From Oscillospiraceae bacterium (GTDB lineage Bacteria > Bacillota > Clostridia > Oscillospirales > Ruminococcaceae), in assembly GCA_045543635.1 (NCBI GenBank), contig JAZQMT010000083.1, forward strand, positions 1 to 49,840: a stretch of 49,840 nt of DNA, written 5' to 3'. Positions 1-8,511 of this stretch are shown piece after piece (position 1 is the stretch's first letter; every line of letters starts with the position of its first letter). A program made the translations under genes and the position numbers. The notes beneath the pieces are model-generated. The model saw only the letters and a program-made list of their open reading frames with translations. It ran no database searches and was not told the DNA's origin.

Positions 1-110
1 GAATATAATATCACAAAAGCCAAAGGCTTTTATATCACTTTTACCACAAGGTAAAAATATCACTGCAAACGATAGTTTGCAATATCACTTATACACGCCG
101 CAAGAGCAAT
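1..110. repeat. Hairpin array A: constant ATATCAC linkers alternating with unrelated perfect mini-hairpins
   Basis: ATATCAC at 8-14, 32-38, 57-63, 82-88 (period 24-25 nt). Between them are three different 7-bp stem hairpins: AAAAGCC-AAA-GGCTTTT (15-31), TTTTACC-ACAA-GGTAAAA (39-56), TGCAAAC-GATA-GTTTGCA (64-81). The array may continue upstream of the window. Confidence 0.7.
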
Positions 111-154
111 CTTTTTTTCGGTAAGGAAAAATTTTATAAAGTATGTAATCTACT

Positions 155-188
155 ATGACACTTTCGCTTTTTGAAAGTGTCATTTTCT
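155..188 (+). terminator. Hairpin plus T-run, probable terminator of an upstream unit
   Basis: ATGACACTTTC (155-165) / GAAAGTGTCAT (173-183), followed by TTTCT. A second hairpin CGGAGAC..GTCTCCG lies at 205-234. Confidence 0.4.
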
Positions 189-312
189 ATATTATATAGA
201 AAAACGGAGACTACTTCTTTACGAAGTGTCTCCGTTCGGCGGGATTTTTTCTTTTGGAAATATGCTGCATAATGCTGTCGAAAATCGGGTAAAAATTTTC
301 ATCCTATAAATA

Positions 313-341
313 TTGCAAAATGAAAATAAGAGTGCTATAAT
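313..341 (+). promoter_or_regulatory. Sigma-A type promoter for the tRNA pair
   Basis: TTGCAA (313-318), 17-nt spacer, TATAAT (336-341), about 12 nt upstream of the tRNA 5' end. Confidence 0.5.
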
Positions 342-353
342 ATAAGAACTGAC

Positions 354-430
354 GGAAGCTTAGCTCAGCTGGTTAGAGTGCCTGCTTCACACGCAGGAGG
401 TCGGCGGTTCGAGCCCGCCAGTTTCCACCA
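354..430 (+). tRNA. tRNA-Val (anticodon CAC)
   Basis: Acceptor GGAAGCT pairs with AGTTTCC. D-loop AGCTCAGCTGGTTAGAG. Anticodon stem CCTGC/GCAGG with loop TTCACAC. T-arm GGCGGTTCGAGCCCGCC. Encoded CCA. Confidence 0.9.
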
Positions 431-435
431 TATTT

Positions 436-509
436 GCAGGTATAGTTCATCGGTAGAACGCGAGCTTCCCAAGCTCGATAGGAGGGTTCGACTCCCTTTA
501 CCTGCTCCA
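436..509 (+). tRNA. tRNA-Gly (anticodon CCC)
   Basis: Acceptor GCAGGTA/TACCTGC. Anticodon stem CGAGC/GCTCG with loop TTCCCAA. T-arm AGGGTTCGACTCCCT. Encoded CCA. Confidence 0.9.
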
Positions 510-516
510 CGAAAAA

Positions 517-551
517 AGTCTCTTTTGTCTACCGACAAAAGGGACTTTTTT
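517..551 (+). terminator. Rho-independent terminator after the tRNAs
   Basis: AGTCTCTTTTGTC (517-529) / GACAAAAGGGACT (534-546), loop TACC, followed by a T-run. Confidence 0.8.
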
Positions 552-556
552 CGAAC

Positions 557-725
557 TAAGTGCGCCTATCGGCGCGTGAAGTTGCTTACGCAGTGAAGTT
601 ACTTCGTAGTGAAGTTTGCTTCGCAAGTGTTTTGGCACACTTAACTTCACTTTGCGGCAACGCCGCAATACTTCACTATGTCGTAAGGCATAACTTCACT
701 TGGGCGTTGCCCATACTTCACTAAA
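557..725. repeat. Hairpin array B: GTGAAGTT x3 then its reverse complement ACTTCAC x4, separated by unrelated mini-hairpins
   Basis: GTGAAGTT at 576-583, 593-600, 609-616. ACTTCAC at 644-650, 670-676, 693-699, 715-721. Variable hairpins: GCGCC-TATC-GGCGC (562-575), TTGCGGC-AAC-GCCGCAA (652-668), TATGTC-GTAA-GGCATA (677-692), TGGGC-GTT-GCCCA (701-713). Confidence 0.7.
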
Positions 726-6673: not shown

Positions 6674-7908
6674 TAAAAAAACTGCGCTTAAGATTAATTG
6701 CAGTTTCCATGCTATCGCTGTTTTCGGTGCTCTTGGTTATTGTCGGTGCAGTTAATATCTTTAACTACCAAAGCATTGTAAATGAGGCAGACAGCACCCT
6801 CTTTTTGTTGGCACAAAATGATGGCAGGTTTCCTTTACCAAACAACGAGGCTCCTTTTTTTGAGCGAGGTCCCGAGCAAATGCGCCCGATGTCACCCGAG
6901 TTACCTTATGAGTCACGCTTTTTCTGGGTGATTACAGGGGCGGACAAAGGCATTGTTTCTTCCGATACCTCCCACATTGCAGCAGTAGACCAAAATGCAG
7001 CAGCCGTTTATGCACAGCGTGCTTTGCGCCTTGGTAAAATCAGCGGTTTTACCGATAATTATCGTTTTTTTACAGATAAAGGCGAGGGCTTTACCCGCAT
7101 TATTTTTCTTGATTGCACACGCAGTCTTTCAACCTTTCGCATGTTTCTTTTAACAAGCTGTGTTATTTCGCTCTTGGGTTTGTTTGCGGTTTTTGTGCTT
7201 ATTGTTTTGCTTTCCAAAAGAATCGTTCAACCTATTTCGGAAAGCTATGAAAAACAAAAACAGTTTATCACTGACGCAGGTCATGAGTTAAAAACACCGA
7301 TTACAATTATAGATGCCGATGCGGAGGTACTGCAAATGGAGGTGGGCGAAAATGAATGGATTTCCGATATTCGTAAGCAAACAAAACGCCTTGCCGCATT
7401 AACAGGAGACCTTATCTATCTTTCACGCATGCAGGAGGAAAGCCTTAAGCTTTGTATTATTGACTTTCCGATTTCAGATATTGTGGCGCAAACGGCACAG
7501 TCCTTTCACTCCCTTGCGCTCACGCAACATAAGGATTTTGCCGCTCAAATTCAGCCGAATCTTTCGTTTTGCGGTGATGAAAAGGCAATTCGTCAGCTTT
7601 CTTCTATCCTTCTTGACAATGCCCTGAAATATTCCGGCGAAAACGGCATTATCCGTCTTGCCCTTTATAAAAGCGGTAAAAATGTGGTTTTTTCGCTCAC
7701 CAATACCGTAACTTCTCTTCCTCAAGGCAATTTGAACCGTCTATTTGACCGTTTTTACAGGGCAGACCCTTCCCGTAACTCTCAAATCGGTGGGTATGGG
7801 ATCGGTCTCTCGATAGCGAAAGCTATTGCTGCGGCGCATAAAGGCAAAATTTCCGCTGTCTCGCCTGATGGCAAATCCCTAACCATCATCGTCACACTTC
7901 CCACATAA
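6670..7908 (+). CDS. Sensor histidine kinase (two TM segments, HisKA + HATPase_c)
   Basis: H-box DAGHELKTPIT, N-box LLDNALKY, G-boxes DRFYRAD and GGYGIGLSIAK. Start overlaps the end of the regulator gene. Confidence 0.9.
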   Translation: MIKKLRLRLIAVSMLSLFSVLLVIVGAVNIFNYQSIVNEADSTLFLLAQNDGRFPLPNNEAPFFERGPEQMRPMSPELPYESRFFWVITGADKGIVSSDTSHIAAVDQNAAAVYAQRALRLGKISGFTDNYRFFTDKGEGFTRIIFLDCTRSLSTFRMFLLTSCVISLLGLFAVFVLIVLLSKRIVQPISESYEKQKQFITDAGHELKTPITIIDADAEVLQMEVGENEWISDIRKQTKRLAALTGDLIYLSRMQEESLKLCIIDFPISDIVAQTAQSFHSLALTQHKDFAAQIQPNLSFCGDEKAIRQLSSILLDNALKYSGENGIIRLALYKSGKNVVFSLTNTVTSLPQGNLNRLFDRFYRADPSRNSQIGGYGIGLSIAKAIAAAHKGKISAVSPDGKSLTIIVTLPT

Positions 7909-7943
7909 AAAGCTCTCTTTAAGGGAACTTCTCATAAGGATGT

Positions 7944-7978
7944 TTAAGAGCAACAGACAAAAAATCTGTTGCTCTTAA
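7944..7978. terminator. Bidirectional hairpin between the kinase gene and the convergent four-helix-bundle gene
   Basis: TTAAGAGCAACAG (7944-7956) / CTGTTGCTCTTAA (7966-7978), loop ACAAAAAAT. Confidence 0.65.
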
Positions 7979-8280
7979 CACTTTACTTTAAAAATAAGTA
8001 ACCAATATTCAGTTTCATAGCACTCTTTCTGTGCTATTTCAAGTTTAGAAATAAAATCCCTTGTTCCCTGTGCATATTGTGCTTCGTGTAAATTCGCACC
8101 GATTGATGTTGCGGAATGAAGTAATTGAATTATCAAAACTGATTCTTTATGATTTGATTTCATATCACGACAGAGGAAAACAACAGTCTTTGCGAATTCT
8201 TTTGCCGTATCTCTTAAAATACTATCAGCCAAAGTTATCACCTCTGAATTTATTATACATAATGAACAGTAGCATTTCAA
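7975..8280 (-). CDS. Four-helix-bundle protein (23S rRNA intervening-sequence protein / Avd-like family), probably C-terminally truncated
   Basis: The core LLHSATSIGANLHEAQYAQGTRDFISKLEIAQKECYETEYWLLIF matches the family signature (S.G.NI.EA....S..DF..KL.IA.KE..ET.YWL). The ORF stops right after the YWL helix, where family members normally continue. N-terminal start uncertain. Confidence 0.75.
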   Translation of the reverse strand: MKCYCSLCIINSEVITLADSILRDTAKEFAKTVVFLCRDMKSNHKESVLIIQLLHSATSIGANLHEAQYAQGTRDFISKLEIAQKECYETEYWLLIFKVKC

Positions 8281-8480
8281 GTGATATTCCGACCTTGTCG
8301 GAGTGATATTATTGCCTTACGGCAATAGTGATATTGAAACCTTATGGTTTCAGTGTTATTTTATTCGCCTCTAAAACTCGCGAAGCGAATATCACTCGGC
8401 GTTAGTCGAATAACACTGCGAAGCAATATAACTCGCCTTTGGCGAATAAAACTGCGAGACTTCCTTATGAGAAGTCTCGC
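8281..8480. repeat. Hairpin array C: GTGATATT x4 then decaying reverse complement AATATCAC x4-5, with unrelated mini-hairpins between
   Basis: Forward: GTGATATT 8281-8288, 8303-8310, 8328-8335; GTGTTATT 8353-8360. Reverse: AATATCAC 8388-8395, AATAACAC 8409-8416, AATATAAC 8425-8432, AATAAAAC 8445-8452. Hairpins: CCGAC-CTT-GTCGG, ATTGCC-TTAC-GGCAAT, GAAACC-TTAT-GGTTTC, TCGC-GAA-GCGA, TCGGC-GTTA-GTCGA, TGC-GAA-GCA, TCGCC-TTT-GGCGA, GCGAGACTTC-CTTATGA-GAAGTCTCGC. Confidence 0.7.
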
Positions 8481-8511
8481 TATCGGGAGAGCTTTTTCAT
8501 GTTTTTGCAAG

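Follow-up and report, generated by a model that had tools for sequence, protein, structure and literature searches.

Gut-1 hairpin arrays of an Oscillospiraceae genome as probable arms of a small mobile element family linked to PF05635 genes

Two described systems stand closest to the repeat arrays considered here. The Gut-1 RNA motif (Rfam RF01706) was described from 43 human-gut metagenome sequences, in no sequenced organism, and was judged to be an RNA on the basis of its covariation (Weinberg 2010, PMC2864571). The second system comprises those intervening sequences (IVSs) of 23S rRNA that carry an open reading frame (ORF), as in Leptospira and Coxiella, which are small inserts in a host hairpin loop, closed by complementary ends that form a stem, and which encode an S23p protein of family PF05635 (PMC4990558). 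The Xanthomonas homologue of S23p forms a homopentamer of toroidal shape, the S23p ORF of the Coxiella IVS is immediately preceded by three to four heptamers in tandem, and the origin of IVSs from mobile elements, in which the ORF would serve as mobility factor, is a long-standing proposal that has never been tested (PMC4990558). Here, we analysed a stretch of 49,840 nucleotides from an Oscillospiraceae bacterium (contig JAZQMT010000083.1, positions 1 to 49,840; hereafter the window), which is contig C83 of a 143-contig assembly of 1.49 Mb with 42.6% G+C (genome G000). Close to its start, arrays of a constant 7-mer alternating with short hairpins lie upstream and downstream of a tRNA pair. These arrays are Gut-1 sequences, and they probably form the arms of short mobile DNA elements whose family resembles both IVSs and miniature inverted-repeat transposable elements (MITEs).

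The upstream array consists of four copies of ATATCAC on the plus strand, starting at positions 8, 32, 57 and 82 with a spacing of 24-25 nt, and its intervals are three perfect 7-bp palindromes with loops of 3-4 nt (AAAAGCC/GGCTTTT, TTTTACC/GGTAAAA and TGCAAAC/GTTTGCA). Downstream of the tRNA pair, GTGAAGT occurs three times (starts 576, 593 and 609) and is followed by four copies of its reverse complement ACTTCAC (starts 644, 670, 693 and 715), and here too hairpins separate the words. In the window there are two matches to the three-word pattern, against none in 100 dinucleotide-preserving shuffles, which confirms the alternation of constant 7-mers and hairpins reported by a first-pass annotation of this DNA. 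The same annotation had described every stem as perfect; this holds for nearly all of them, the stem TATGTC/GGCATA containing one T.G pair. A blind genome-wide search for hairpins flanked on both sides by the same 6-mer returned almost exclusively the array words (ATATCA and TATCAC with 41 occurrences each, TGATAT with 35 and GTGATA with 34), and the next real word had 2-3 occurrences. Altogether, 30 word clusters are found in this genome, nearly all of them with one layout, and Gut-1 matches are present in 18 of 41 related genomes, with a patchy distribution and 0-40 matches per genome. The arrays are thus dispersed and conserved, and the suspicion that they might be unique to this locus can be dismissed.

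Searched with cmscan, model positions 1-77 of RF01706 align to window positions 90-3 on the minus strand with 41.7 bits (E ~1e-6) and, over the same model positions, to 723-639 on the minus strand with 24.8 bits. A further weak match of 19 bits lies at 515-587 on the plus strand. All three fall below the Rfam gathering cut-off of 50 bits for this model, whereas sister left arms in the same genome reach 55-66 bits. In the RF01706 consensus, GUGAAAU stands between three hairpins, which is the arrangement of constant linker and variable palindrome noted by the first-pass annotation, and the elements described here likewise have three hairpins separated and flanked by GUGAAAU-like heptamers. The likeness extends to the occurrence in human-gut organisms, to the covarying stems, and to the end-to-end alignment of the model with both window arrays. 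The element family qualifies as Gut-1, and the two arms in the window are divergent word variants, with GUGAUAU and GUGAAGU in place of the consensus heptamer. The repeat class that had gone unrecognised in the first reading therefore has a name, while the view taken there that both constant words are variants of one family was correct. Convergent plus/minus pairs of Gut-1 matches recur in other families. The published motif corresponds to one arm; here, this arm is half of a dyad inside a probable mobile element linked to PF05635 genes, and a near absence of wobble pairs puts a purely RNA role in question. Known as a motif, the class is apparently undescribed in its genomic nature, namely as a probable mobile element that resembles IVSs and MITEs and is linked to a ring protein of the four-helix-bundle type.

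A full element of this family is 0.2-0.56 kb in size and runs from a terminal hairpin (P1) through a left arm, a short centre and a right arm to a gene or a tail, and ends in a second terminal hairpin (P2) that mirrors P1. The left arm comprises about four heptamer words, each followed by a short perfect hairpin, at a spacing near 19 nt. The right arm comprises about four inverted words and three longer hairpins, at a spacing near 24 nt, and is succeeded either by an outward promoter and a gene for a PF05635 four-helix-bundle protein or by a tail of ~150 nt. The modal count of clear words is 4+4, with a degenerate fifth word at best. We compared 42 composites from this genome and eight relatives. 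In these, a long-range stem of 10-13 nt (S1), in which the first degenerate word and the 5' arm of the first hairpin (hairpin A) pair with the centre, encloses the left arm. In 41 of the 42 composites, S1 matches perfectly over 8-13 nt (over 10-13 nt in 34), and it occurs as at least eight unrelated sequences, among them TTATATTCGCC, TCTATTCGCC, AAATCCACCC, ATATCCGTTCC and GAAATTTGCCC, so that it covaries across word classes. Seen in this framework, the two arrays at the start of the window are parts of two different elements. The first-pass annotation had both flanking the tRNA pair; the downstream array is indeed tied to the tRNAs, and the upstream one belongs to a separate element.

At window 557-576, and likewise in all composites, the 5' arm of hairpin A can pair either locally with its 3' arm or distally with the centre as part of S1. 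The three segments involved covary as CGCC/GGCG/GGCG, CACC/GGTG/GGTG and CACCC/GGGTG/GGGTG, and the two mutually exclusive pairings, both conserved, look like a switch. The sequence GCTTCGC is found in the left arm of 27 of the 42 composites (for example at window 8396-8404 and 616-626). Its complement GCGAAGC, known to form a DNA mini-hairpin of unusual stability, occurs in only two of the 42 right arms. Two conserved modules were also seen in the tails: one of ~60 nt (GGGTTTGGGCT...CATT.GTAC..ACAAATGCGATGCTGGTTCT) on contig C86, after the stop codon of the PF05635 gene, and on C13 and C47, after the right arm, and a different one common to C122 and C90.

Within one element the palindromes are mutually unrelated, in agreement with the first reading, but those that occupy the same position in different copies or genomes are homologous and differ by paired, compensatory substitutions (for example TGCTTCGCA). 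The palindromes are hence inherited from copy to copy within a dispersed family and not generated per unit, which makes the palindrome-creating mechanism proposed earlier unnecessary. Creation of the palindromes de novo by snap-back or hairpin-primed synthesis is disfavoured by this positional homology, to the point that we give it next to no credence, even though self-complementarity of the stems is nearly complete. Quasi-palindromes are known to mutate by templated correction, a route that could help to keep the stems perfect.

The stems carry no strand signal. Among 846 stem pairs in 145 distinct hairpins, 835 (98.7%) are Watson-Crick pairs, and the wobble pairs, in which a strand preference was sought, yielded none (three G.T against four A.C). 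On the GTGATAT strand the loops are TTC, TTT, TTAC and TTGC, and those of the other arm are their exact reverse complements. These mirror-image loops mark the composite as a true dyad in which neither strand is favoured. The GNRA-like loops of the right arm were considered as an indicator of RNA sense and rejected, as their reverse complements stand in the left arm (TTC/GAA, TTAC/GTAA and TTGC/GCAA). Summed over the 42 elements, fold energies amount to -1986 kcal/mol for the sense and -1924 kcal/mol for the antisense strand, the sense strand being more stable in 27 elements and the antisense strand in 15, a difference too weak to be informative. Taken together, the wobble-free mirror symmetry argues against a one-stranded RNA under ordinary RNA selection and fits a constraint on both strands.

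This symmetry bears directly on the possibility of a free-standing structured small RNA, in which the hairpins would present GUGAWAU linkers as single strands and so titrate or guide an RNA-binding protein, much like the protein sponge suggested by the first-pass annotation. Such an RNA would be in keeping with the fit of the Rfam model and with the covariation judgement of Weinberg 2010. Related elements are also present in metatranscriptome contigs with a summed depth of 100-400, these contigs being unstranded and derived from relatives, and some relatives carry a forward-only, leader-like array just before the ribosome-binding site of a PF05635 gene. However, the stems contain nearly no G.U pairs, sense and antisense fold energies are nearly equal, and the mirror-symmetric grammar turns half of the words into AUAUCAC on any transcript, so that the sponge fits poorly. 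Moreover, no promoter/terminator pair of its own frames a single arm, and copies are located inside split host terminators. We therefore regard a small RNA of this kind as improbable.

An insertion is seen in a complete cassette of 561 bp at 7920-8480 on the minus strand (element 3), which is skipped by DNA contigs of related strains. An 18.7-kb contig from a related strain, with a depth of 19 and flanks of ~99% identity, omits exactly 7920-8480, and its empty allele reads AAAAAGCTCTC-CCGATAA-GAGAGCTTTTT, an intact 11-bp bidirectional terminator hairpin. In the window, the 5' half of this host terminator (AAAAAGCTCTC) is found at 8487-8497 and the 3' half (GAGAGCTTTTT) at 7907-7917, both on the minus strand. 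The element occupies the terminator loop; its first base is the first of P1, and it is flanked by TA on either side. The element comprises P1 (8454-8480), the two strands of S1 (8441-8451 and 8359-8369), the left arm (~8370-8440), the right arm (8281-8359), a promoter (8252-8280), a truncated PF05635 gene (~7975-8232) with a profile match at 7987-8214, and a subterminal inverted repeat (7928-7940), all on the same strand. At the one site whose empty allele is known, the flanking TA may thus be a target-site duplication; the junctions elsewhere read TA, TT or TC.

This setting is common in the genome. Locus-specific A-tract/T-tract terminator halves bracket 11-12 of the 17 copies for which both flanks are available, and the two ends of the copies themselves are imperfect mirror images of each other, that is, inverted termini. 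When host half, element and host half are folded together, the host stem re-forms in the minimum-free-energy structure at 8 of 8 loci and on both strands. Most copies sit between convergent genes and abut no promoter. In a second setting, which recurs in relatives of other families, the element stands directly behind the terminator of a tRNA gene; the window copy behind tRNA-Gly and its paralogue on C95 behind tRNA-Ser become similar directly after the CCA end. Empty sites for the tRNA-linked copy and for two solitary copies were sought in contigs of related strains and none was found, the tRNA flank being variable between strains; the DNA of same-genus species is too diverged for a synteny search of empty sites. 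Of the 30 clusters, about half are no more than 200 nt away from a contig end, and public metagenome contigs break at the repeat, with ~10-100x summed depth. The family is therefore a main cause of fragmentation in these assemblies, and its copy number is probably undercounted.

In these respects the family resembles MITEs that fold into hairpins, such as the Correia elements of Neisseria and REPINs. The copies are short, multi-copy, dispersed between genes and bounded by terminal inverted repeats; presence or absence with an intact empty site was observed for the 561-bp gene-bearing copy and was not seen for two gene-less copies. Hairpin-folding MITEs are often transcribed with their neighbours, some bear outward promoters, and Correia elements duplicate a TA target. 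In contrast to MITEs, no cognate transposase was found here, the only gene ever carried is that of PF05635, and a possible TA duplication is seen at one site only. The word-plus-hairpin grammar and the terminator-loop target are distinctive of the present family.

PF05635 contains the 23S rRNA-intervening-sequence proteins (TIGR02436), which are four-helix bundles of the 23S-rRNA-IVS/Avd family. The family is very widespread, and to our knowledge its only understood member is Avd, the accessory protein of diversity-generating retroelements. The closest solved structure is PDB 2RLD (E 4e-30), which has five chains. Among 41 genomes, Gut-1 and PF05635 occur together in 14, each alone in four, and neither in 19 (Fisher p = 1.5e-4), and the co-occurrence persists outside the genus of our organism (Fisher p = 5e-4). 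The two are also adjacent: inverted heptamer arrays immediately precede each of the 11 distinct PF05635 genes examined, and eight of these genes stand right behind a tRNA. At 80 loci from other species, a strict exact-word test was passed by 40 of 72 usable upstream regions compared with 1 of 57 downstream controls (p = 2e-12), and many of the apparent failures are full composites with decayed words. The words fall into classes by protein clade (GTGATAT, GTGAAAT, GTGAAGT, ATGAAAT, ATGATAT, ATGATGT, ATGAATT, AGCTAAAT and GTTATGA). Both arms of a composite always share one word and change it together. Among the cassettes of the genome, element 3 and those on contigs C86, C95 and C122 carry the gene, and the two arrays at the start of the window carry no such gene. 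Together, the copies form a series of gene decay, from an intact gene on C86 through an in-frame stop (TAG) on C122 and the truncated gene of element 3 to a stub of ~35 codons on C10, with no gene at all in most copies. The relatives of the PF05635 gene of this genome come from gut and rumen Clostridia, mostly labelled Acutalibacteraceae or Oscillospiraceae. None of the papers searched links PF05635 to heptamer arrays or to Gut-1.

The comparison with ORF-bearing IVSs follows from the gene and from the ends of the insert. As in those IVSs, cassette copies encode a PF05635/TIGR02436 protein, and the insert in a host hairpin loop is closed by complementary ends, here the inverted termini together with the host half-stems; heptamers before the ORF are shared with the Coxiella IVS. 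Unlike the IVSs, which occupy helix 25 or 45 of 23S rRNA, the elements described here are hosted by intrinsic terminators after protein genes or by tRNA 3' flanks. Their arms are heptamer-plus-hairpin arrays, most copies are gene-less, and there are tens of them per genome.

Some PF05635 loci deviate from the standard layout. At C2:44430-44640, at C71:4700-4910 and at locus L011, PF05635 genes behind tRNAs follow inverted arrays in which about five heptamers (of the CTTAC/GTAAG and ATGAATA types) stand in tandem, interrupted by at most one hairpin, a variant of the design that dispenses with hairpins. On C122, the cassette also contains an ORF of ~50 amino acids (MSKEIEISGCIEV...), placed after the four-helix-bundle gene and before the right terminal repeat.

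The hairpin-less arrays are relevant to the idea of a protein-independent repeat, selfish or structural, which would be either a self-folding MITE-like sequence or a bidirectional terminator or mRNA stabiliser. Its words would be constant for the sake of left-right pairing, and PF05635 would be a frequent cargo or neighbour. As the forward-then-reverse layout had led the first-pass annotation to expect, left words do pair with right words in minimum-free-energy folds, giving a ladder of four-way junctions. The concerted change of words in both arms, the lack of a gene in most copies, and a terminator position combined with Watson-Crick-only stems suited to folding on both strands also agree with this idea. 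As a conserved feature, however, the pairing of words was rejected, since the few compensated cases (C46, C86 and C122) are set against many left words that decay (GTTATAT, GTTTTAT) without a compensating change in the right arm. Furthermore, where other PF05635 genes are preceded by tandem arrays without hairpins, these arrays lack mutual complementarity in register, and the adjacency of array and gene is near universal over many species and word classes. A repeat that dispenses with the protein thus appears unlikely.

The right arm usually ends at the -35 element of a TTGxxx-17-TATAAT site before the PF05635 gene. This position, and the fact that inverted 7-mer arrays are typical of operators, would suit double-stranded DNA iterons or operators read by an ordinary regulator other than PF05635, acting on the promoter that abuts the right arm. 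Yet this would leave the perfect hairpins between the sites without explanation, most copies abut no promoter, and no other gene is linked to the elements. We consider such a regulator very improbable.

Other candidates for mobilising the elements were also searched for. No multi-copy transposase-like ORF was found. Reverse transcriptase (RVT_1) is missing from G000 and from the carriers G014, G027 and G035, and most carriers have none. A diversity-generating retroelement with Avd was rejected, given that the main carriers have no reverse transcriptase and that the Avd equivalog model scores 16.5 bits against a cut-off of 80. CRISPR-like or type III toxin-antitoxin repeats were rejected as well, for the words are 7 nt long, the 'spacers' are conserved between copies, and no cas or toxin gene is linked. 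A single intact IS200-type Y1 transposase gene is present in G000 (C105:17688-18044, 144.6 bits); it adjoins no array.

Repetitive extragenic palindromes (REPs), arranged as bacterial interspersed mosaic elements (BIMEs) or REPINs and mobilised by a RAYT/IS200-type Y1 transposase or by a hairpin-targeting IS110-type recombinase, share several traits with the arrays, namely a short conserved word beside a hairpin, inverted pairs and intergenic multi-copy spread, and the Y1_Tnp gene on C105 could be counted in their favour. The distribution of Y1_Tnp nevertheless fails to track Gut-1 (Fisher p = 0.21), and the gene is absent from the high-copy genomes G014, G027 and G035. IS110 is absent from all carriers at the curated cut-off, with a sub-threshold match in G026 only, and the hairpins differ by position and share no single palindrome. 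A REP-like origin is therefore largely refuted and, in our view, exceedingly improbable. These results uphold the first reading where it set the repeats apart from both REP and CRISPR, with a constant linker and structure-conserving hairpins. As a whole, that reading was partly borne out; it did not recognise that the arrays are parts of composites, that the elements insert into terminator loops, that strains differ in the presence of a copy, or that PF05635 genes are linked to them.

The heptamers, spaced by hairpins, may be recognition sites of the ring-shaped PF05635 protein encoded by the cassette. The ring protein would control its own promoter or leader via the heptamers, possibly propagate the element, and would act in trans on the gene-less, MITE-like copies. 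We regard such reading of the heptamers for autoregulation, and perhaps for propagation in trans, as a real possibility that stops short of being probable. The insert, in turn, is Watson-Crick self-complementary on both strands and would fold back in transcripts from either direction. The folded insert would bring the split halves of the host hairpin together, making insertion nearly harmless; that two-strand self-complementarity serves to re-form the split hairpin in this manner is conceivable, and we give it slightly less than half of our credence. A working analogy, and no more than that, is offered by TRAP of Bacillus, a ring protein that binds (G/U)AG repeat RNA and thus reads a short spaced word irrespective of spacer content. 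PF05635 is unrelated to TRAP, the words number 4+4 compared with a pentamer, and the putative binding may have DNA as its target.

Several observations weigh against this interpretation. No catalytic activity is known for PF05635, nor has a transposase been linked to the elements. Four Gut-1-positive genomes are devoid of a PF05635 match and four show the reverse, and the matching of words to protein clades may reflect co-inheritance alone. A pentamer would lead one to expect 5+5 words instead of the modal 4+4. The arrays lie upstream of the predicted promoter in most cassettes and in the leader in some relatives, so that no single site of action fits. Only one copy is demonstrably polymorphic, and the two solitary gene-less copies are occupied in all strains seen. 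The RNA runs consist of unstranded contigs from relatives and leave the window's own genes uncovered.

More tentatively still, PF05635 ring proteins of the S23p/Avd family might be sequence-specific heptamer readers, with each clade matched to its word. Together with word-plus-hairpin arrays they would constitute transposase-less cassettes homing to stable hairpin loops, such as terminators, tRNA 3' flanks and 23S rRNA helices. The rRNA IVSs, Gut-1 and the gene-less copies would then be one system, the gene-less copies being mobilised in trans. We consider this generalisation rather doubtful.

Returning to the start of the window, the array downstream of the tRNAs belongs to element 2 (557-721), one complete composite with the word GTGAAGT. 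The host features preceding it on the plus strand are a promoter-like site (313-341), tRNA-Val(CAC) (354-430) and tRNA-Gly(CCC) (436-509). An A-tract/T-tract terminator hairpin of element 2 (512-551) stands directly after the CCA end of the tRNA, in the place of P1. The left arm lies within S1 (557-643), whose 5' strand TAAGTGCGCC occupies 557-566 and whose 3' strand GGCACACTTA occupies 634-643, and it includes hairpin A (562-575), hairpin D (TTGCTTCGCAA, 616-626) and a degenerate fifth word, GTGTTTT (627-633). The right arm, with its four ACTTCAC words and three longer hairpins, extends over 644-721. It is followed by an outward promoter-like site, TTGAGT-17-TGnTATAAT (728-756, 10 of 12 promoter matches), and by a ribosome-binding site and an ORF of 168 amino acids (768-1274), all on the plus strand. 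The ORF is without a match in Pfam or NCBIfam and takes the position of the PF05635 gene in sister cassettes. In a related strain (run X2), no contig covers 751-1250 (depth 0); the cargo at the tRNA flank therefore varies between strains.

The upstream array is the right arm of element 1, a composite that is cut by the contig start, with its left arm off the contig, and that extends on the plus strand to ~236. Positions 1-7 (GAATATA) are the end of the 3' strand of S1, sister copies showing GGCGAATATA before the first ATATCAC. The right arm proper occupies 8-88, and an identical arm is present on C12, C93 and C136. Its tail (89-236), delimited by a terminator scan and the inverted termini, consists of a spacer, a terminator-like hairpin T1 (155-183, followed by a T run) and the terminal hairpin P2 (203-236). 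BLAST matches to sister copies span window positions 1-233. By analogy with the bracketed sister loci, the adjoining segment at 237-250 (CGGCGGGATTTTTT, plus strand) is probably the right half of a host terminator split by element 1, the left half of which is off the contig.

Gut-1 has been in Rfam since 2010 without organism, context or function, and its tie to PF05635 provides both with a testable hypothesis, namely that the ring protein reads the heptamers. An array-bearing unit that constitutes a terminator-loop insertion revives the old idea that rRNA intervening sequences are mobile elements. Newly reported here are the terminator loop as target, the empty allele, high-copy derivatives that lack the gene, statistics showing stems almost free of wobble pairs, and the exclusion of reverse transcriptase, RAYT and IS110. 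For the gut Clostridia that carry them, these elements break short-read assemblies, and their outward promoters and terminator position may alter the expression of neighbouring genes.

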